In this document: positions 28,707 through 63,317 of the stretch, piece by piece | How positions within the stretch are numbered: position 1 is the stretch's first letter | Layout of the letters: every line of letters starts with the position of its first letter | NCBI GenBank assembly: GCA_947428835.1 | Contig: CANENE010000002.1 | Span: forward strand, 16,901-80,900 | Length of the DNA: 64,000 nucleotides | Direction: 5' to 3' | Source of the DNA: an uncultured bacterium | GTDB taxonomy: Bacteria; Cyanobacteriota; Vampirovibrionia; Gastranaerophilales; Gastranaerophilaceae | Made by a program: the position numbers and the translations under genes | The notes under the pieces: generated by a model | The model's database searches: none | The model's input: only the letters and a program-made list of their open reading frames with translations | What the model was told of the DNA's origin: nothing

Positions 28707-28747
28707 TGTTCATTTGAACTTGACAATTTTGTTCATTTGACTATAAT
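28707..28747 (+). promoter_or_regulatory. Candidate promoter (TTGACA-16-TATAAT) with two direct operator-like repeats TGTTCATTTGA
   Basis: TTGACA at 28720-28725 and TATAAT at 28742-28747. Repeats at 28707-28717 and 28730-28740, the second lying inside the spacer. Confidence 0.5.
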
Positions 28748-28806: not shown

Positions 28807-28864
28807 AATTTGGCAAAATTTGCCTCATTTTTTGTACACAAAATATTTTTTTAAGGAAAATAAC
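28807..28864 (+). promoter_or_regulatory. Conserved 5' leader of the long-class cassettes (two small hairpins plus AAGGAAAATAAC-ATG)
   Basis: GGCA-N5-TGCC (28812-28824) then TTTTGT-AC-ACAAAA (28830-28843). The same layout occurs at 58069-58137 and 63234-63317(-). Confidence 0.5.
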
Positions 28865-30109
28865 ATGAAAGATATAAACAAGCCTTTAAAGGCGCATTTG
28901 TTCTGCATTGATTTTTGGTTCAGGGAGGAAAAAGCCTTTTCTCTTATAGAACTGCTTGTGACACTCATTATAATGTCTTTGCTTATATCGGCCTTTATGC
29001 CTGTAGTAACTAAGAAATTAAAATCTTCTGCGACGGTATTGGGTGGTGGTTCGGGTGATGGAGGTTTTTCATCCGATATACTTTTTTCTAAAGAATGTGA
29101 AAAATTTTCAACAGAAGAATATAAATGCTTGATGTGTTCAACAACATCTTGCACATTGTGTTCAACTCAATTAAGTACAATAACAGGTTATTATGTAGAT
29201 CCGTCCGAAGGCTGTGAGCCTAAAAATTGTGCAGATAAGTTTGGAAGCAATTGTATGGATTGTAAAAAAGATTCTTGCAGCGCTTGTATTCCGGGAAGTG
29301 CTTTTGATGCTGAAACGAATAGTTGCAAAGAATGCGAAGCAGGATATTATTCTTTAGGAGGGTTGTCAAATTGTGAAAAATGTCCCGCAGGTTCGGTTTC
29401 AACAAAAGGTTCATCAGGCTGCGTATCTTGTCCTTCTGAATGTAAAAGCTGCACGACGGCGGAAATGTGTACCGAGTGCAATCAAGGCTATATATTAAAC
29501 TCGGGAAAATGTGTTTTAGGTTGCAATCCGCAAACGGTTACACTTTCAGGTACAAATACAAAAGTTACCAGATTCAATATGGGAGATGATCCAAACTGCC
29601 CAAGAGATGTTATACAATCTATGTCAGGTGTAATATTTGTACCTGTTGGTACAAACTGCCCGGATTCAAGAAATAATAAATTATGCTGCTGGTATGGCGT
29701 AACTGCTGTCGGCAATACCTGTACAAATAAGGGTGGTGTCTATTCTGGCTGTAATAGAACAGTATGTATGTGGCCTGCTGCAAAGAAAATATGCGAGTCT
29801 ATCGGTAAAGGTTGGAAACTTCCTGATACGGCAAATTCTATGGCAACCTGGTATCCTAATAATTCTACGGCATCAACAGGGCTTATGCTTTGTAGACATG
29901 CAGTGGGACGCGATGATTCCGATCTTTGTACGGATGCTATTACCAGCTGCCCGGACGCTGATGGCGGTTGTGCTCCATCGGGCGTATGGGCGAATGCTCT
30001 TAGTGCTAATCGTAACGGGCATGAATATAGCTGGATGTATTTCGGCTGGGATACCAGTAAATGGACCGGCATAACTCATGCATTTTCTGTGCGCTGCGTA
30101 AAAGAATAA
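28865..30109 (+). CDS. Prepilin-N-terminus protein with CXXC/furin-like Cys-rich repeats and one DUF1566/FISUMP-like module (P1, 414 aa)
   Basis: 24-aa leader then FSLIELLVTLIIMSLLISAF (class III signal type, Glu at +5). Contains CKECEAGYYSLGGLSNCEKCPAGSV...CVSCPSECKSC repeats. C-terminal CCWYG...YSGCNRTVCMW..AAKKIC...GWKLPD...FSVRCVKE. Confidence 0.85.
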   Translation: MKDINKPLKAHLFCIDFWFREEKAFSLIELLVTLIIMSLLISAFMPVVTKKLKSSATVLGGGSGDGGFSSDILFSKECEKFSTEEYKCLMCSTTSCTLCSTQLSTITGYYVDPSEGCEPKNCADKFGSNCMDCKKDSCSACIPGSAFDAETNSCKECEAGYYSLGGLSNCEKCPAGSVSTKGSSGCVSCPSECKSCTTAEMCTECNQGYILNSGKCVLGCNPQTVTLSGTNTKVTRFNMGDDPNCPRDVIQSMSGVIFVPVGTNCPDSRNNKLCCWYGVTAVGNTCTNKGGVYSGCNRTVCMWPAAKKICESIGKGWKLPDTANSMATWYPNNSTASTGLMLCRHAVGRDDSDLCTDAITSCPDADGGCAPSGVWANALSANRNGHEYSWMYFGWDTSKWTGITHAFSVRCVKE

Positions 30110-30113
30110 AATT

Positions 30114-30167
30114 TGTTATTTTTTTGTGTTAGATTATGCGCCTTTGGTTTTCAAAGGTGCTTTTTTT
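30114..30167 (+). terminator. Conserved 3' box (TGTTATTTTTTTGTGTTAGATTA) plus rho-independent terminator
   Basis: Box begins 5 nt after the stop. Hairpin GCGCCTTTG-N5-CAAAGGTGC plus T7 at 30138-30167. Confidence 0.75.
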
Positions 30168-30235: not shown

Positions 30236-30337
30236 GTCACCCTGAACTCGTTTCAGGGTCTAACCAGCTTTGGGATATTATATGAAATTTATTATTCATA
30301 CTAACACATCAAATGCTGAAACAAGTTCAGCATGATG
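30236..30337. repeat. REP/MITE-like composite repeat (L hairpin plus inverted R hairpin), copy A
   Basis: L is GTCACCCTGAACTCGTTTCAGGGTCTAACC (30236-30265). R is AAATGCTGAAACAAGTTCAGCATGATG (30311-30337). GCCTCGCAATGA boxes at 30196 and 30371. Confidence 0.8.
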
Positions 30338-35946: not shown

Positions 35947-36162
35947 TTAATCTTCAAAATCAAACAGTTCTTTAATATTAATTCCAAGGTTATCGGCTAT
36001 TATTTTTAGTTTTGTGATTGTAACGTCGGTTGCTCCTATTTCAAGCAGGCTAATCATTGACCTTGAAATGCCGTTTGTTCCGATATCATCTTGCGTAAGG
36101 TGTTTTTCTTTTCTTATTTTTTTTAAGTTTTTTGCAAATTTTTGTAAAAAAACCTTGTTCAT
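35947..36162 (-). CDS. XRE-family HTH regulator, short class (cassette 2)
   Basis: 71 aa. LKKIRKEKHLTQDDIGTNGISRSMISLLEIG HTH. Divergent from P2. Confidence 0.8.
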   Translation of the reverse strand: MNKVFLQKFAKNLKKIRKEKHLTQDDIGTNGISRSMISLLEIGATDVTITKLKIIADNLGINIKELFDFED

Positions 36163-36242
36163 TTTTAAATTGTTAGCTATACTAGCATTAAATACAACTA
36201 GTCACACTAGCAAAATTATTCAAGGAAAGGACGGAAATTCTT

Positions 36243-37796: not shown

Positions 37797-37823
37797 TTTC
37801 AACAAAATTATTAATAAGTTTCA

Positions 37824-37876
37824 TGTTATTTTTTGTGTTAGATTACGCACCTTTGGTTTTCAAAGGTGCTTTTTTT
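37824..37876 (+). terminator. Conserved 3' box plus rho-independent terminator
   Basis: TGTTATTTTTTGTGTTAGATTA, then GCACCTTTG-N5-CAAAGGTGC plus T7 (37847-37876). Confidence 0.75.
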
Positions 37877-37988: not shown

Positions 37989-38203
37989 CACCTCAGATGC
38001 TGAAACAAGTTCAGCATGACGTATGTGGACATTGGGGCTTGCATTCGTTATTATGAGAGTTTCTATAAGAAATTCAGGATATTCCAGAAAAACAAAATTT
38101 GCGCAATTCGTCACCCTGAACTTGTTTCAGGGTCTGACCAAGTTTGTGGCAACGCATAAAGTCAGTTATTGTTCATTACTTAGATGCTGAAACAGATTCA
38201 CTT
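37989..38203. repeat. REP/MITE-like repeats, copy set B (R, L, degenerate R)
   Basis: R is CACCTCAGATGCTGAAACAAGTTCAGCATGACG (37989-38021). L is GTCACCCTGAACTTGTTTCAGGGTCTGACCA (38110-38140, with tail AGTTTGTGGCAACGCATAAA). Degenerate R at 38181-38203. A separate 11-bp-stem hairpin lies at 37906-37933. Confidence 0.8.
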
Positions 38204-38270: not shown

Positions 38271-38424
38271 AATATACTTTATATATATGTAAGACATAAG
38301 AAACCTAACTAAAAAAAGATATACACACAAAACACACTATACTACACTACAACACACTAACCTTTCACACGAGAATCAAGCAAAAAGATTTTCAAGCCTC
38401 TTAAATTTAAGAGGCTTTTCGTTA
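38271..38424 (+). ncRNA. Candidate small RNA, copy 1 (shared 5' box, CA-rich body, conserved 3' block, terminator)
   Basis: AATATACTTTATATATATGTAAGA box. CA-rich ACACACAAAACACACTATACTACACTACAACACACTAA. 35-nt block CCTTTCACACGAGAATCAAGCAAAAAGATTTTCAA. Hairpin AAGCCTCTTA-N4-TAAGAGGCTT. A paralogous copy lies at 49449. Confidence 0.35.
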
Positions 38425-49448: not shown

Positions 49449-49612
49449 AATATACTTTATATATATGTAAGATATAAATACTCCAATTTAGAGTTTAAAA
49501 AAGAATTATTTATAAAACTAATATCAACACTACAACTACACACTACTAACCTTTTCACACGAGAATCAAGCAAAAAGATTTTCAAAGACTTCGATAAAGA
49601 AGTCTTTTTTAT
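49449..49612 (+). ncRNA. Candidate small RNA, copy 2
   Basis: Same 24-nt 5' box as 38271, a CA-rich stretch (CAACACTACAACTACACACTACTAA), a near-identical 3' block CTTTTCACACGAGAATCAAGCAAAAAGATTTTCAA, and terminator AGACTTC-N6-GAAGTCT plus T6. Confidence 0.35.
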
Positions 49613-56466: not shown

Positions 56467-56471
56467 ATTCA

Positions 56472-56524
56472 TGTTATTTTTTGTGTTAGATTGAGGCTTT
56501 TTCTTTGATTGAGCCTCTTTTTTT
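56472..56524 (+). terminator. Conserved 3' box plus rho-independent terminator
   Basis: TGTTATTTTTTGTGTTAGATT, then GAGGCT-N13-AGCCTC plus T7. The stem sequence differs from the other copies. Confidence 0.7.
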
Positions 56525-57986: not shown

Positions 57987-58029
57987 TTCTATTCAATTGA
58001 GTTGACTATTCTGTTCAATAGAATATAAT
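57987..58029 (+). promoter_or_regulatory. Candidate promoter (TTGACT-16-TATAAT) with two operator-like repeats TTCT(A/G)TTCAAT(T/A)GA
   Basis: TTGACT at 58002-58007 and TATAAT at 58024-58029. Repeats at 57987-58000 and 58009-58022. Same geometry as cassette 1. Confidence 0.5.
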
Positions 58030-58068: not shown

Positions 58069-58137
58069 AATTGGTAAAAAATGGCATTTCTGCCTCACTT
58101 TTTTGTACACAAAAAAATAACTTTTAAGGAAAATAAC
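58069..58137 (+). promoter_or_regulatory. Conserved 5' leader (GGCA-N4-TGCC hairpin, TTTTTGT-AC-ACAAAAA hairpin, AAGGAAAATAAC-ATG)
   Basis: Alignable with 28807-28864 and 63234-63317(-). Confidence 0.5.
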
Positions 58138-61100
58138 ATGGAAAAATACAACAAGGCTCAAGGAGTTTATTTGCTGTGCTTGAAGGCTGATTTGAAATGC
58201 AAAAAAGCATTTTCACTTATAGAAATCCTGATAAGTTTAATCATCATCTCTCTTCTTATCGCGGCTTTTACTCCAATTATCACAAAGAAGCTTAAAGCAT
58301 CAGATATTTCAATAGGTTCTTTTGGAAGCGGAAGTAACATTAATATGACATTAGAAAGACAAGTCACAAAAGAAGATTGTGATAAATATGATGCAATTTT
58401 TATTCCTGCAGCAATGAACGGGGGCACAAGAAATCTTTGTGTTACAAGATATAATGTCGGAGATAATATAGATAATGGCGGAGTTCCAATTGCAAAAAGC
58501 GCTAAGACTCTTTCAGTCGGAAGTACATGTAATGACCATTTAAACTGCTGCTGGCAAGGAGCAACTGCAAACAGTTGTGCAAATGGTGATAGCAATAGTG
58601 ATTACTCGGGGTGTAATAGAACAGTCTGCGGATGGCAGGCAGCAAACGCCAGCTGTGCTGCGTATGCTCCAGATAATGAAAATGAAGGAAGCTGGAGACT
58701 TCCAACCAAAGAAGAAATATTAAACTGGCAGGACAACTTTTCTAATCTTCAAACAAACAAAGGTAAAGAAGGGCTTCAATTATGCAGTTATGAAGCAATT
58801 GATGGTTATACAAAATGCTCTGCAACAACAGCTTGCAATGATACAGGTCTTACCCATAACGGTTGTCATCCGCATCATATATTTTCAAACAATGCATTTG
58901 ACACATTTGCACTAAACCGAGCAAAATTTGACTATTCAAATAGTGAAAATATTACATATTCAGCAGGTGCAAGATGTGTATTGGATAAAATAGCTGTTGA
59001 TGTCTCTGAGCTTCCAAATGGTGGCGGGATAAAAGACCCGACAGTTGACCCTTTTTATGGAGAACCCAAAGATCAGGCAGATTGTGATAAAGTAGTTGCA
59101 ATATTCATAGATAAAAAAATGTCAGGAGCAAACAGAAACATCTGCGTTTCTAAATATAACGTAGGAGACGCTGGTCCCGATGGCTTTGGACCGCCTATAC
59201 CTGAAAGCTTCAATCAATATATAATGAATGCAGGCCAAACTTGTCCTTATAATGGCAATTGTTGTTGGAAAGGAAAGACTGCAAATGCTTGTGGTATTAC
59301 AGGCAATGCCGGAGCAAATTATAGTGGCTGTAACAGAACCGTATGCCAATATAATGCTGCAAACGCTGCCTGCAGACAATATAATGCTTTTGGAGCAACT
59401 GCCGTTGGAGCCTGGAGGTTGCCAACCGGTGCAGAATTTAGTGTATGGATGCAATACATGAAGGAAATAAGCAACAACAAAGGACCTGACGGTCTGCAGC
59501 TTTGTGTAAGTGGAACAAGCGCAGGATATGTACAATGTGCAAATATACAAAACTGCCCGGGCTTTTCAAGTGTTTCCGGATGGGGTGCTCATTGTACGCC
59601 ATTTAACAATTGGACTTCAACGATAATTTCAAAAACTTATCAAACCTATAATACTGCAGGAGGAGTATTTGGCGGAGGGAACGATATTCCTGCAAGTGCA
59701 AGATGTGTTTATGACGGCATTACAAAAGCCAATAATTATGAAGAAGATTTAAGCGACTATGACGATTCTAATGCTCCAAAAGATGAACCAAAGTCTCAAG
59801 CTGATTGCGACAAATTGACAGCTATTTTTATTCACAAAAAATATGCTGGAGGTTCAAGAAATCTTTGCATAAGTAAATATAACGTAGGGGATAGCGGACC
59901 AAGCGGCTCAGGGCCGACAATTCCATCAGCTTATAATACTTATATAATGAATGCAGCTCAAAGTTGCCCTTATAATGGTTATTGCTGCTGGAAAGGAAGG
60001 ACTGCAAATGCTTGTGGTATTACGGGTAATGTCGGAGCTAACTACAGCGGATGTAACAGAACCGTTTGTCAGTGGCACATTGCAAATGAAAGTTGTTTAT
60101 TGTGGACTGCGGGAGGAAAAACCCAAGCAAGAGCTTGGAGACTCCCAACACAGGCAGAATTTACAAATATTGTAAATTATATGAATATCATAAATAACGA
60201 TAGAGGTGCTGACGGTCTGCAGCTTTGTGTAAGTGGAACAAACGCAGGATATGTACAATGTGCAAATATACAAAACTGCCCGGGCTTTTCAAGTGTTTCC
60301 GGATGGGGTGCTCATTGTACGCCATTTAACAATTGGACTTCAACGACGGGTTTAACTTATGATGCTGCCGGTAATGCATATAGCGGGGGCGCAGATATTC
60401 CTGCAAGTGCAAGGTGCGTGTATGATGGAACCATAAATAAACCAAGCGATATAGGAGACTATGATGAAAGTAATGCGCCCGATGATGAACCAAAAAGCCA
60501 AGCAGATTGTGATAAATTAACCGCAATATTTGTACACAAAAAATACTCAGGTGACCCAAGAAATATTTGTATTTCAAAATATAACGTAGGAGATACCGGT
60601 CCAAGCGGTTCAGGACCCCAAATTCCTACTCAATATGCGCAGTATACAATTAATGCTGCTCAAGCTTGCGGTAAATCCGGCTATTGTTGTTGGAAAGGTA
60701 AAACCGCTAATTCTTGCGGAATAGTAGGAAATGCCGGAGCTGATTATTCGGGTTGTAACAGAACAGTATGCCAATGGTATGTTTCTGATGCTGCCTGCAA
60801 AGAATATACTGCAGGTGGAAAAACCCAAGCCGGTTATTGGAGACTACCTACCCAGGTTGAGTTTTCAAGCATGTTCCAATATATGGGAGAAATTAACAAT
60901 AATAGAGGTAAAAACGGAATTCAATTGTGCACCTCAGGAACTAATCCGGGTTTTGTACAATGTGCAAATATACAAAACTGCCCGGGCTTTTCAAGTGTTT
61001 CCGGATGGGGTGCTCATTGTACGCCATTTAACAATTGGACTTCAACATTGGGTATAACCTACAATTCCATTGGAAATACATTTAGCGGGGGCGCAGATAT

Positions 61101-61146: not shown

Positions 61147-61153
61147 TTAAGTT

Positions 61154-61205
61154 TGTTATTTTTGTGTTAGATTACGCACCTTTGAAAAACAGAGGTGCTT
61201 TTTTT
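61154..61205 (+). terminator. Conserved 3' box plus rho-independent terminator
   Basis: TGTTATTTTTGTGTTAGATTA, then GCACCTTTG-N5-CAGAGGTGC plus T7. Confidence 0.75.
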
Positions 61206-61628: not shown

Positions 61629-61682
61629 AAAAAAAGAGGTCTGAAAAATTTCAAACCTCATAATCTAACACAAAAAATAACA
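61629..61682 (-). terminator. Conserved 3' box plus rho-independent terminator of P5 (minus strand)
   Basis: Minus strand reads TGTTATTTTTTGTGTTAGATTA, then GAGGTTTGAAA-N3-TTTCAGACCTC plus T7. Confidence 0.75.
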
Positions 61683-61685
61683 AAC

Positions 61686-63233
61686 TTATTTTGGAATTTT
61701 ATCTGTAACGCATCTTGCGGAAGTCCCTTCATGTCGTGGCCTTGCTATGACGGCTTGAAAAATATATTTATATGTTATATAAGAAACACCATTTTGCCCC
61801 CATAGTGCAATTGGAATGCAGCCCGTACCTGCTGCACTTGTGCACGCTGTTGATGAATAGCAATTAACAGCCCCGCCATTTATTCCGCCTTCATTGCAAA
61901 GTTGTAAACCTGCAGAACCCTTGTTTAGTGTTATAGTACTCAAATTTTTGCTCCATCCAATCAATTCCTCTTCTGTAGGAAGTCTCCAAAGTCCTTTTAT
62001 ATCGTCAGGTGCATAGCTATTGCAAGAAATGTCACTTGCCGCCCAGTTACATAGAGTTCTATTGCAGCCGCTATATGTGCTATTGCCGTTGCCTCCTGCG
62101 GTATCGCAATTGCTTGTTGTTTTGCCTTGCCAGCAGCAATACTTACTTGCGCAAGTGCCCCCTGTAATTTGAGTCACATTTACAATAGGGTCTGTATAAA
62201 TATCGCCGATATTGTATTTTGTAGCACAAACGCCGGTTTTGCCGCCATTCATATTCTTTGGAATAAAAAGTGCATTATATTTATCGCAATCTTCTTGGCT
62301 CTTTGGTTCTTTATAGTTAAATCCGTCATCGGCATCTTCTTCTTTTTTTGCATTTTCAATTACTGTATCTAATACGCATCTTGCACTTTGTGCATTAGTT
62401 GGCTCATATTCTCTGTAGGAATCAAATATTCCTTCGTGCAGATATTTATCCCAATACATGTTTGTATTTGTACCTGTTTCTGTCAACGACCAGTTATGAT
62501 ATGGCCAGCATGCATTATCAAATGAACCCGGGCACAATTTAGCAAAAGATACTCCGGGATTGGTATGTGTTATGCACACCACGGATCCGTAATTTTTGGC
62601 GCTATCGCACAGTTGCAAGCCGTCATAGCCTTTATTAAACTGTAAGTTATTTAAATGCTTTGCCCATCCGCTCATTTCAATATAAGTTGGAAGTCTCCAC
62701 TTGCCCCCTAGTGCCTTGGGGGAATATTCTTTGCAGCTCAAATTTGCAGCTTCCCACTGACACATTGTTCTGTAGCAGCCGCTGTAGTCTGTATTTCCGT
62801 TGCCTGTCGTGCCACAATAGCCGGAGGGTGATGTTTGCCCCTGCCAGCAGCAGAGGCTTTCATTTCCTTTAGTGCAGTTACTGCCTGCAGGAACCGTTTC
62901 TACGCTTTTAGATATAGTGATACCATTATCTCCCACATTATATTTAGTGACGCAAATATCATTAATGCCGTCATTCATTTCTTTTGGAATAAATAAGGCG
63001 TTAACTTTTTGGCAATCTTCTTTCGTCGGGGGTCTTGCGGCAGTCTCTGTGCTGCTTTCTTCCTTTTTGCCACTAAAGCTTCCAACCGTAATGTCTGATG
63101 CTTTGAGTTTTTTGGTGATAATTGGTGCGAAAGCTCCAATTAAAAGAGACATTATAATAAGACTTGTAAGAAGCTCAATAAGGCTAAAAGCGCATCGAAA
63201 TTGAGCCTTTTGAGGCTTTGGTTTTTTCTCCAT
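61686..63233 (-). CDS. Prepilin-N-terminus protein with two DUF1566/FISUMP-like Cys-rich modules (P5, 515 aa)
   Basis: 15-aa leader then FSLIELLTSLIIMSLLIGAFAPIITKKLKAS. Contains CCWQGQTS, YSGCYRTMCQWEAANLSCKEY, KWRLPT, GLQLC and SARCVLD. Module 2 ends SARCVTD. Confidence 0.85.
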   Translation of the reverse strand: MEKKPKPQKAQFRCAFSLIELLTSLIIMSLLIGAFAPIITKKLKASDITVGSFSGKKEESSTETAARPPTKEDCQKVNALFIPKEMNDGINDICVTKYNVGDNGITISKSVETVPAGSNCTKGNESLCCWQGQTSPSGYCGTTGNGNTDYSGCYRTMCQWEAANLSCKEYSPKALGGKWRLPTYIEMSGWAKHLNNLQFNKGYDGLQLCDSAKNYGSVVCITHTNPGVSFAKLCPGSFDNACWPYHNWSLTETGTNTNMYWDKYLHEGIFDSYREYEPTNAQSARCVLDTVIENAKKEEDADDGFNYKEPKSQEDCDKYNALFIPKNMNGGKTGVCATKYNIGDIYTDPIVNVTQITGGTCASKYCCWQGKTTSNCDTAGGNGNSTYSGCNRTLCNWAASDISCNSYAPDDIKGLWRLPTEEELIGWSKNLSTITLNKGSAGLQLCNEGGINGGAVNCYSSTACTSAAGTGCIPIALWGQNGVSYITYKYIFQAVIARPRHEGTSARCVTDKIPK

Positions 63234-63317
63234 GTTATTTTCCTTTAGATGTGTGTAAATTTTTTTGTATATATTTGTAATTTATGCATAAAAAATGAGG
63301 CATAATATGCCAAATTT
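63234..63317 (-). promoter_or_regulatory. Conserved 5' leader of P5 (GGCAT-N3-ATGCC hairpin, TTTATG/CATAAA palindrome, AAGGAAAATAAC-ATG)
   Basis: Minus strand reads AAATTTGGCATATTATGCCTCATTTTTTATGCATAAA...AAGGAAAATAACATG. Hairpin positions are conserved, but the second stem has a different sequence. Confidence 0.45.

Follow-up and report, generated by a model that had tools for sequence, protein, structure and literature searches.

A 3′-untranslated-region box complementary to the translation-initiation regions of its own pilin-like gene family in a gut Gastranaerophilales genome

For regulation through bacterial 3′ untranslated regions (3′ UTRs), the known examples are few and involve single genes. 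In icaR of Staphylococcus aureus, a 3′ UTR motif pairs with the Shine-Dalgarno (SD) sequence, which blocks initiation and creates a substrate for RNase III (PMC3868564), and the hly 3′ UTR of Listeria monocytogenes acts in trans by pairing with the prsA2 5′ UTR (PMC8722363). DNA inversion or cross-talk between transcription factors is the usual explanation for the coordination of surface variants. Here, a 64,000-nucleotide (nt) stretch of DNA (the window; positions 16901-80900 of contig C2) from a 1.8-Mb assembly of Candidatus Gastranaerophilales, a lineage of nonphotosynthetic Melainabacteria (24 contigs, 32% GC, 97.7% complete; designated G000) was analyzed for a short sequence, the box, that lies between the stop codon and the terminator of five paralogous genes, P1 to P5, encoding pilin-like proteins. 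A single antisense box was found to be common to this whole surface-protein family and to be complementary to the start sites of many of its members. It is proposed, with moderate confidence, that the box is a 3′ UTR antisense element acting mainly in trans, by which the mRNAs of some paralogs (senders) would repress the translation of others (receivers).

The core of the box, TTGTGTTAGATT, is present exactly at positions 30124, 37833, 56481, and 61162 on the plus strand and at 61673-61662 on the minus strand. These are the five exact matches in the window, where seven matches with at most one mismatch were found against 0.89 expected by chance. An initial annotation of the window had described the box as invariant, which holds for the core in all five genes; the full 21-mer is exact at three sites only (37824, 56472, and 61682 on the minus strand), and P1 and P4 differ from it by the length of the T run alone (seven and five T, respectively). 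The remainder of the anatomy was as first described. The box follows the stop codon of all five genes, at distances of 4, 27, 5, 7, and 3 nt to the box start as then drawn, the coding 3′ ends and the stop-to-box spacers allow no alignment, and each box is followed within 0 to 2 nt by a hairpin and seven T.

Genome-wide, 36 modules of box plus terminator were identified, with the extended consensus (G)TTTCATGTTATTTTTTGTGTTAGATTA(C/T)G. All 36 boxes are on the sense strand, 0 to 3 nt upstream of a hairpin plus six to eight T. The core GTGTTAGAT is conserved at 97 to 100% over the 36 copies, the T run within the box ranges from one to eight residues (mode, six), and conservation drops sharply at the box end. 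The terminator stems comprise 10 variants (mean hairpin ΔG, −11.5 kcal/mol) connected by compensatory paths such as GAGGCT/AGCCTC to GAGGTT/AGCCTC (G·U) to GAGGTT/AACCTC, which agrees with the earlier view that their structure is conserved and their sequence is not. Prepilin-type family genes (N_methyl plus Lcl_C/DUF1566-like) precede 34 of the modules, with 9 to 55 nt between the stop codon and the core; the other two are a module at the edge of a contig and an orphan (C3:81112, minus strand). No box was found after an unrelated gene anywhere in the genome. The genome has 36 complete genes with an N_methyl motif; the box is present in 31 of them (in degraded form in two) and absent from one family member (of 32 complete) and from four small pilin-like N_methyl genes outside the family. 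The box is thus neither a generic feature downstream of unrelated genes nor, as the comparison with related species below indicates, lost from orthologs, the two outcomes that the initial annotation had named as counting against selection on the box. Both the conservation of the core and the upkeep of species variants in relatives support such selection.

Many family leaders contain the sequence AATCTAACAC...(AAGGA)AAATAACATG, which ends on the start codon and of which the box, (T)CATGTTATTTTTTGTGTTAGATTA, is the reverse complement; the complementary stretch covers the SD site, through G·U pairs, together with the AUG. RNAduplex predicted a two-part duplex in which leader AAUCUAACAC pairs with box GUGUUAGAUU and leader (AAGG)AAAAUAACAUG pairs with box CAUGUUAUUUU(UU), placing two G residues of the SD sequence opposite U. 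The window has three exact copies of AAGGAAAATAACATG, one at each of the P1, P4, and P5 start codons. The consensus box was paired with positions −90 to +70 of each gene start (first ATG), using the other open reading frames (ORFs) of at least 150 amino acids for comparison. Mean duplex energies were −15.0 kcal/mol for the family (n = 32) and −10.0 ± 1.9 kcal/mol for the other ORFs (n = 1,403), and a reversed-box control gave a mean of −10.2 kcal/mol with the family genes. Duplexes of −15 kcal/mol or lower were predicted for 20 of 32 family genes versus 20 of 1,403 others (Mann-Whitney p = 3e−11), and most of the strongest end on the ATG. When intergenic regions were scanned, the best sites were mostly family leaders once the antisense strands of the boxes themselves had been removed. 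A strict search for the two-part leader motif recovered mainly these antisense strands and was uninformative because the leaders are too degenerate.

Under the proposed mechanism, the box, situated after the stop codon and ahead of the intrinsic terminator, would be the final unpaired segment of each family mRNA, or alternatively would be carried on a fragment of ∼55 nt processed from that mRNA. The box, CAUGUUAUUUUUUGUGUUAGAUUA, is antisense to the translation-initiation region common to many family members, with its CAUG predicted to pair with the start codon and the preceding base, GUUAUUUU with the spacer, the U run with the purine-rich SD sequence AAGGA via G·U, and the distal segment with the upstream part of the leader. 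Such pairing would occlude the ribosome-binding site and so repress translation, and could also create an RNase III substrate. Putative senders (P2 and P3 in the window) combine a perfect box with a leader predicted to be unable to pair, and putative receivers (P1, P4, and P5) combine a complementary leader with a degraded box. Transcription of senders, each under its own divergent XRE repressor, would silence receiver paralogs posttranscriptionally, and the outcome would be a hierarchy or exclusivity among ∼35 to 45 pilin-like surface proteins.

The division into these two classes emerged when all leaders were paired with all boxes for the 31 complete G000 genes. Leaders paired on average at −12.5 kcal/mol with the box of the same gene versus −15.3 kcal/mol with the boxes of other genes (Wilcoxon, 5.6e−5), and none of 20,000 permutations was as weak in mean as the observed own-own pairing. 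The strength of leader pairing and the strength of the box of the same gene were anticorrelated (Spearman rho, −0.79; p = 1.5e−7). A canonical box was defined as lying within one edit of TCATGTTATTTTTTGTGTTAGATTA and a variant box as lying at least two edits away; eight genes have the exact canonical 25-mer and two more are at one edit, and the variant boxes have typically lost the CA of CATG or carry an altered T run. Complementary leaders were found in 0 of the 10 canonical-box genes versus 19 of the 21 variant-box genes (Fisher, 1.5e−6). The leaders of the 10 canonical-box genes gave −8.3 to −11.9 kcal/mol, which is at background level, and sender boxes with receiver leaders gave −15 to −23 kcal/mol against a background of −10 ± 1.9 kcal/mol. 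In the protein tree, sender and receiver genes are interspersed, and six of seven two-leaf sister pairs differ in the predicted direction. As the 10 canonical boxes have no partner in their own leaders, pairing within an mRNA cannot explain their conservation, which needs a partner on another molecule. There appears to be selection against self-pairing, a kind of selection supported by a recent study in which expression was inhibited by anti-SD sequences lying at a distance from the ribosome-binding site and genes were depleted of such sequences (PMC12697547).

Homologous genes of related species carry species-specific variants of the box (Table 1). The exact 15-mer was not found in the genomes of the same genus that were searched, save for one isolated match in G017 that had no terminator. 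Across the genus the proximal half of the box, CAT(G/A)TTATTTTTT, is kept, and the distal half differs by species (GTGTTAGATT in G000, AAATCGTGTT in G031, GTGTTTTGGTTA in G002/G005, and GTGTTTTGATAT in G018/G032). Some leaders carry the complement that matches their species: AAACGGATTTAAGGAAATAATATG, AAACGATTAAGAGATAACATG, and AATACGGTTTAAAAAATATG in G031, TAACCAAAACA..GGAAAATAATATG in G002/G005, and AATATCAAAACGGAAAAATATCATG in G032. In the G031 examples, most departures of the leader from full complementarity are, by our reading, A to G or C to T changes that keep G·U pairs, a pattern that would fit RNA-RNA pairing better than identity of a DNA repeat. At −15 kcal/mol or lower, 25 of 41 G000 leaders paired with their own box versus 4, 6, and 0 with the boxes of other species, and 6 of 12 G002/G005 leaders did so versus 3, 0, and 1. 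No clear advantage of the own box over those of other species was seen for the G031 and G018/G032 leaders, because the shared proximal half dominates the energy. Counts of a strict 10-nt distal motif were 8, 0, 3, and 1 within species and almost none across species, and 6 of 1,402 nonfamily genes had the motif; wobble-aware counts across species were too permissive to be informative. Taken together, covariation of the distal half and the leaders between species is suggestive, not conclusive.

The sender/receiver division itself recurs in these relatives. In G031, the five most complementary leaders are all on variant-box genes (Fisher, 0.036), box and leader are anticorrelated in G002/G005 (rho, −0.95; n = 8), and the same split is visible by eye in the few genes of G018/G032. 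The stem GGAGAGG/CCTCTCC is nearly invariant across 18 G031 genes with unrelated coding sequences (CDSs; loci L041-L046 and L181-L193), with variable loops, and the whole module is more uniform in that genome than in G000. In G015, a subfamily ending ...SVRCVSEL (loci L206, L207, L209, and L211) is without the box and has another conserved 3′ flank, TAACAATGAAGTGTCAATACTTTAGTCATTTTACAATTTAA.

Several points weigh against the proposed mechanism. The predicted duplexes are rich in A/U and G·U pairs and are mostly bipartite, with internal loops of 0 to 17 nt, which gives them only modest specificity at a genomic GC content of 32%. The leaders are far less conserved than the box, about one-third of family leaders do not pair, and the G031 leaders as a group gave −11.5 kcal/mol with their own box versus −11.8 kcal/mol with that of G000. 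A test on independent pairs, with 4 pairs available on well-supported branches and a median p of 0.5, lacked power, and the paralogs are not independent of one another. The division into senders and receivers could in part reflect two ancestral flank types, as an XRE subtype of the NLNWFVSG type, with the motif NLNW(F/L)(V/I)SG.G.MF, is present only beside variant-box genes (10 of 21). Finally, no Hfq, ProQ, CsrA, or RRM protein scored above the cutoff in the 97.7% complete genome, where the Hfq model is of limited reach, having also failed to detect Hfq in a cyanobacterial control genome.

The box might instead be an element for protein binding, 3′-end stability, or mRNA localization, its U/G-rich single strand beside the terminator being recognized by an as yet uncharacterized RNA-binding protein, by which, for example, prepilin-like mRNAs would be taken to the membrane or the secretion machinery, with leader complementarity being secondary. 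In its strict conservation and its constant distance from the terminator, the box resembles a protein-binding module. Moreover, the box module is present in 18 of 18 large prepilin-type G031 genes examined (with the box degraded in three), and these include some with unrelated C termini, so that the box tracks large prepilin-type secreted proteins and not the Lcl_C domain. Such a role would leave unexplained both the reverse complementarity of the box to the family SD and AUG region and the anticorrelation of box integrity with leader complementarity in three species groups, and the lack of an Hfq, ProQ, CsrA, or RRM homolog above the cutoff also speaks against it, though a protein of another kind could still serve; it is considered unlikely. 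The same null result disfavors a known RNA-binding protein as the partner, which the initial annotation had suggested along with a small RNA (sRNA). Two CA-rich sRNA candidates in the window (38271-38424 and 49449-49612) were rejected, as they paired with the box at −10.9 and −10.0 kcal/mol, no better than with shuffled boxes (−9.6 ± 2.2 kcal/mol). Coordination of the family through RNA pairing, as suggested there, does fit the data, with the difference that the predicted partner is the leader, SD sequence, and start codon of the family itself and not a separate sRNA or protein. By our reading, no conserved promoter was seen between the stop codon and the box.

A reading closer to icaR is that the box folds back onto the ribosome-binding site and start codon of its own mRNA, limiting translation to the cotranscriptional period or triggering decay. 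It has icaR as a precedent (PMC3868564); box and complementary leader are on the same transcript in 19 to 25 genes, and receivers keep moderate self-pairing of −9 to −19 kcal/mol. This reading nevertheless appears improbable in the face of the significantly weaker own-own pairing and of the 10 canonical boxes (0 or 1 edit) on mRNAs with background-level leaders. Gene-by-gene covariation within one mRNA was looked for and not found, the pattern being the opposite, and TAGTGT variants of the box have no matching leaders. A uniform box within a species alongside differing leaders would also be unexpected if each pair had evolved separately.

Variable surface-protein families often use DNA inversion, and the complementarity could represent an inverted repeat acting at the DNA level, either in gene inversion or cassette exchange (phase variation or a shufflon) or as the terminal repeats of a mobile cassette. 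An inverted repeat of ∼23 bp brackets the CDS exactly, from the ATG to just before the terminator, conservation ends sharply with the box, and six tyrosine recombinases are encoded in the genome. However, near-perfect inverted repeats at a fixed spacing, as in invertons and shufflons, were not found: 0 of the 10 canonical-box genes have a 5′ partner arm, and elsewhere the arms are split by loops of 0 to 17 nt and matched in part by G·U only, which fits RNA pairing and not a recombinase core site. All 31 complete genes are in one orientation in the assembly, with the divergent XRE gene upstream and the box and terminator downstream, no serine invertase was found in the genome, and no recombinase lies beside the five window genes. 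No consistent target-site duplications were seen by our reading, and no copies lie beside unrelated genes, contrary to what a miniature inverted-repeat transposable element or a repetitive extragenic palindromic (REP)-type mobile repeat would display. A DNA-level role therefore appears improbable, and the box is unlikely to be a recombination or gene-conversion boundary, as the initial annotation had also offered, given the absence of a 5′ repeat in perfect-box genes, the variable loops, the single orientation, and the housekeeping neighbors.

That the box is an inherited relic lacking sequence-specific function, copied with the terminator module along with the genes, is hardly credible: the terminator stems do belong to a small number of inherited classes that accompany the box, yet the core is 97 to 100% identical in 36 copies of paralogs whose proteins are only ∼38 to 52% identical and whose spacers are unalignable, and the box persists across species of the genus.

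A wider and more tentative proposal builds on the trans-acting antisense mechanism. The ∼35 to 45 genes in gut Gastranaerophilales may form a self-contained network of mRNA-mRNA silencing, with no dedicated sRNA gene or known chaperone, that imposes hierarchical or exclusive surface display and in which box and leaders coevolve as a species-specific code. If true, this would be a simple, RNA-only way to coordinate dozens of adhesin-like variants or to make them mutually exclusive, and it would offer a first point of entry into the regulation of the pilin-like gene families that have expanded in uncultured gut Melainabacteria.

The features of the five window genes are listed in Table 1. All five P proteins have the prepilin-type N-terminal cleavage/methylation motif (PF07963, TIGR02532), and cysteine-rich Lcl_C/DUF1566-like modules ending ...ARCV were matched in four; the P1 protein ends ...VRCV and has a furin-like repeat instead of an Lcl_C match. 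The adjoining genes are housekeeping genes (PBP1, QueA, CTP synthase, and MlaA). A divergent small ORF lies upstream of every complete family gene (31 genes; for P2, in the window 36080-36240 region), and those of the five window genes were confirmed as XRE-type HTH_3 regulators.

Table 1. Coordinates and forms of the family features in the window and of the box in related genomes
Feature	Position in window	Strand	Sequence	Remarks
P1 CDS	28865..30109	+		Prepilin-type N terminus, Cys-rich repeats, one ARCV module
P1 leader	28836-28843	+	ACACAAAA	Matches box distal half; predicted P1 duplex with canonical box, −15.0 kcal/mol
P1 translation-initiation region	28853..28867	+	AAGGAAAATAACATG	SD, spacer, ATG (28865-28867); complements box proximal half CAUGUUAUUUUUU, SD GG opposite UU
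P1 3′ box	30112..30136	+	TTTGTTATTTTTTTGTGTTAGATTA	Variant form without CA of CATG, 7 T; 3 edits from canonical; receiver class
P1 intrinsic terminator	30138..30167 (hairpin 30138-30160)	+	GCGCCTTTGGTTTTCAAAGGTGC then T7	
P2 CDS	36243..37796	+		N_methyl and Lcl_C-like modules; leader not box-complementary (−9.1 kcal/mol)
P2 3′ box	37819..37845	+	TTTCATGTTATTTTTTGTGTTAGATTA	Canonical form; sender class
P2 intrinsic terminator	37847..37876 (hairpin 37847-37869)	+	GCACCTTTGGTTTTCAAAGGTGC then T7	
P3 CDS	54886..56466	+		N_methyl and Lcl_C-like modules; leader not box-complementary (−11.4 kcal/mol)
P3 3′ box	56468..56492	+	TTCATGTTATTTTTTGTGTTAGATT	Canonical form; sender class
P3 terminator	56493..56524 (hairpin 56493-56517)	+	GAGGCTTTTTCTTTGATTGAGCCTC then T7	Loop exceeds rule of terminator scan; read by eye
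P4 CDS	58138..61146	+		N_methyl and four Lcl_C-like modules
P4 leader and initiation region	58107..58140	+	ACACAAAAAAATAAC (58107-58121), AAGGAAAATAACATG (58126-58140)	ATG 58138-58140; both box-complementary; predicted duplex, −15.1 kcal/mol
P4 3′ box	61152..61174	+	TTTGTTATTTTTGTGTTAGATTA	Variant form without CA, 5 T; receiver class
P4 terminator	61176..61205 (hairpin 61176-61198)	+	GCACCTTTGAAAAACAGAGGTGC then T7	
P5 CDS	61686..63233	−		N_methyl and Lcl_C-like modules
P5 leader and initiation region	63231..63260	−	ATTTACACACATCTAA then AAGGAAAATAACATG	ATG 63233-63231; box-complementary; predicted duplex, −17.8 kcal/mol
P5 3′ box	61661..61684	−	TTTGTTATTTTTTGTGTTAGATTA	Variant form without CA; receiver class
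P5 terminator	61629..61659 (hairpin 61659-61636)	−	GAGGTTTGAAATTTTTCAGACCTC then T7	
P1 leader hairpin	28812-28835	+	TGGCA..TGCC	
P4 leader hairpin	58083-58106	+	TGGCA..TGCC	
P5 leader hairpin	63311-63288	−	TGGCA..TGCC	
REP-like hairpin repeats	30238-30262, 38109-38135			Also in many 3′ flanks genome-wide
G031 3′ box			CATGTTATTTTTTAAATCGTGTT	Followed by invariant GGAGAGG..CCTCTCC stem
G002, G005, G001, G015 3′ box			CATATTATTTTTTGTGTTTTGGTTA	
G018, G032 3′ box			ATGTTATTTTTTGTGTTT(T)GATAT	
G006 3′ box			CATATTATTTTTTGTTTTAGTATAG	

P1 and P4 are preceded by near-consensus σ70 promoters ∼110 nt from their start codons (P1, TTGACA-16-TATAAT, window 28720-28747; P4, TTGACT-16-TATAAT, window 58002-58029); at this distance they would give long 5′ UTRs holding the leader hairpin, the associated motifs, and the box-complementary segments. 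The small leader hairpin TGGCA..TGCC, followed by (T/C)CA(C)TTTTTTGT, is shared by P1, P4, P5, and several family genes elsewhere, with the motif AACTATAACATA 15 to 20 nt upstream of it and a compensatory stem change (GACA/TGTC) at C12:17082. Two of these hairpins were flagged as terminator-like by the terminator scan, and the hairpin could be an attenuator or a protein-binding site. A σ54 promoter was considered for the same sequence and rejected, as the spacing is variable and falls 1 to 3 nt short of that required.

At C2:154536-154590, beyond the window, the stop codon of an unrelated gene is followed by AATCTAACACAAAAGATAACATC, which matches the leader-type sequence almost perfectly. It is inside a longer hairpin (GATAACATC..CCCAAAGGA...TCCTTTGGG..GATGTTAT) and has no adjoining family gene. 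The orphan canonical box with its terminator (C3:81060-81127, minus strand) has no family ORF upstream and lies ∼800 nt upstream of C3:80208, the sole family gene without a 3′ box. Just 3′ of family terminators are REP-like hairpin repeats (GTCACCCTGAACTCGTTTCAGGGTC, GGATTGCCACG.., and AAAGCTTCTGCCGGAGT...). Four contigs (C2, C8, C12, and C14) end 100 to 130 nt past a box and many others end inside family genes, so the size of the family is underestimated. A crude count gave only ∼58 GC-clamped hairpins followed by at least six T in the genome, a number so small that the 36 family modules may account for much of its complement of strong intrinsic terminators. Rfam gave no match in the window at the gathering score and none at an E value of ≤1 in five box-bearing loci. 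The exact 24-mer box had no matches in metagenome contigs, and a search of public genomes with the 17-mer ATRTTATTTTTTGTGTT was swamped by lone chance matches in AT-rich genomes. A small peptide starting at the ATG of the box was also considered and rejected, as the T run of one to eight residues shifts the frame and about one-third of the boxes have no ATG.

One seed carried by ∼36 paralogs and aimed at their own family, with a sender/receiver split and species variants, is new in that no description of it was found in the literature, and its components have parallels in several known systems. Like icaR (PMC3868564), the family has a short motif complementary to a ribosome-binding region in what is presumably the transcribed 3′ UTR, upstream of the terminator. 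Unlike icaR, a single self-acting gene with a C-rich anti-SD sequence (UCCCCUG) in a long 3′ UTR, it involves ∼36 paralogs and a U/G-rich box with a single C directly before the terminator, which covers the SD sequence by G·U along with the spacer and the AUG; complementarity within the same mRNA, the hallmark of icaR, is the weaker kind here and is apparently avoided. As with hly and prsA2 (PMC8722363), one full-length mRNA has a 3′ UTR whose sequence complements the 5′ UTR of another, and the genes that would be linked in this way encode secreted proteins. That case is one unrelated pair in which the target is stabilized, whereas the relation here would be many-to-many within one paralogous family, and a target comprising the SD sequence and AUG predicts repression.

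The enterobacterial 3′ UTR-derived, Hfq-dependent sRNAs CpxQ, SroC, and GlnZ (bioRxiv 10.1101/2022.04.01.486790) likewise have a single-stranded seed just upstream of the terminator of the parent gene and target initiation regions, and the box is a conserved seed of this type, beside an intrinsic terminator and complementary to initiation regions. It differs from them in that one seed recurs in ∼36 genes, its predicted targets are the seed-bearing family itself, any processing is putative, and neither Hfq nor ProQ was detected. With invertons and shufflons the family shares short inverted repeats that bracket a unit in a variable surface-protein family, but the repeats here are imperfect and variably spaced, are missing wherever the box is best preserved, and occur in one orientation with no invertase nearby. 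In its predicted outcome, the system resembles the fimbrial cross-talk of Enterobacteriaceae through PapB-family regulators (PMC12388093), in which the expression of one adhesin locus keeps others down and limits display to a few types; there the means are transcription factors and phase-variable promoters, and here direct pairing between mRNAs is proposed.

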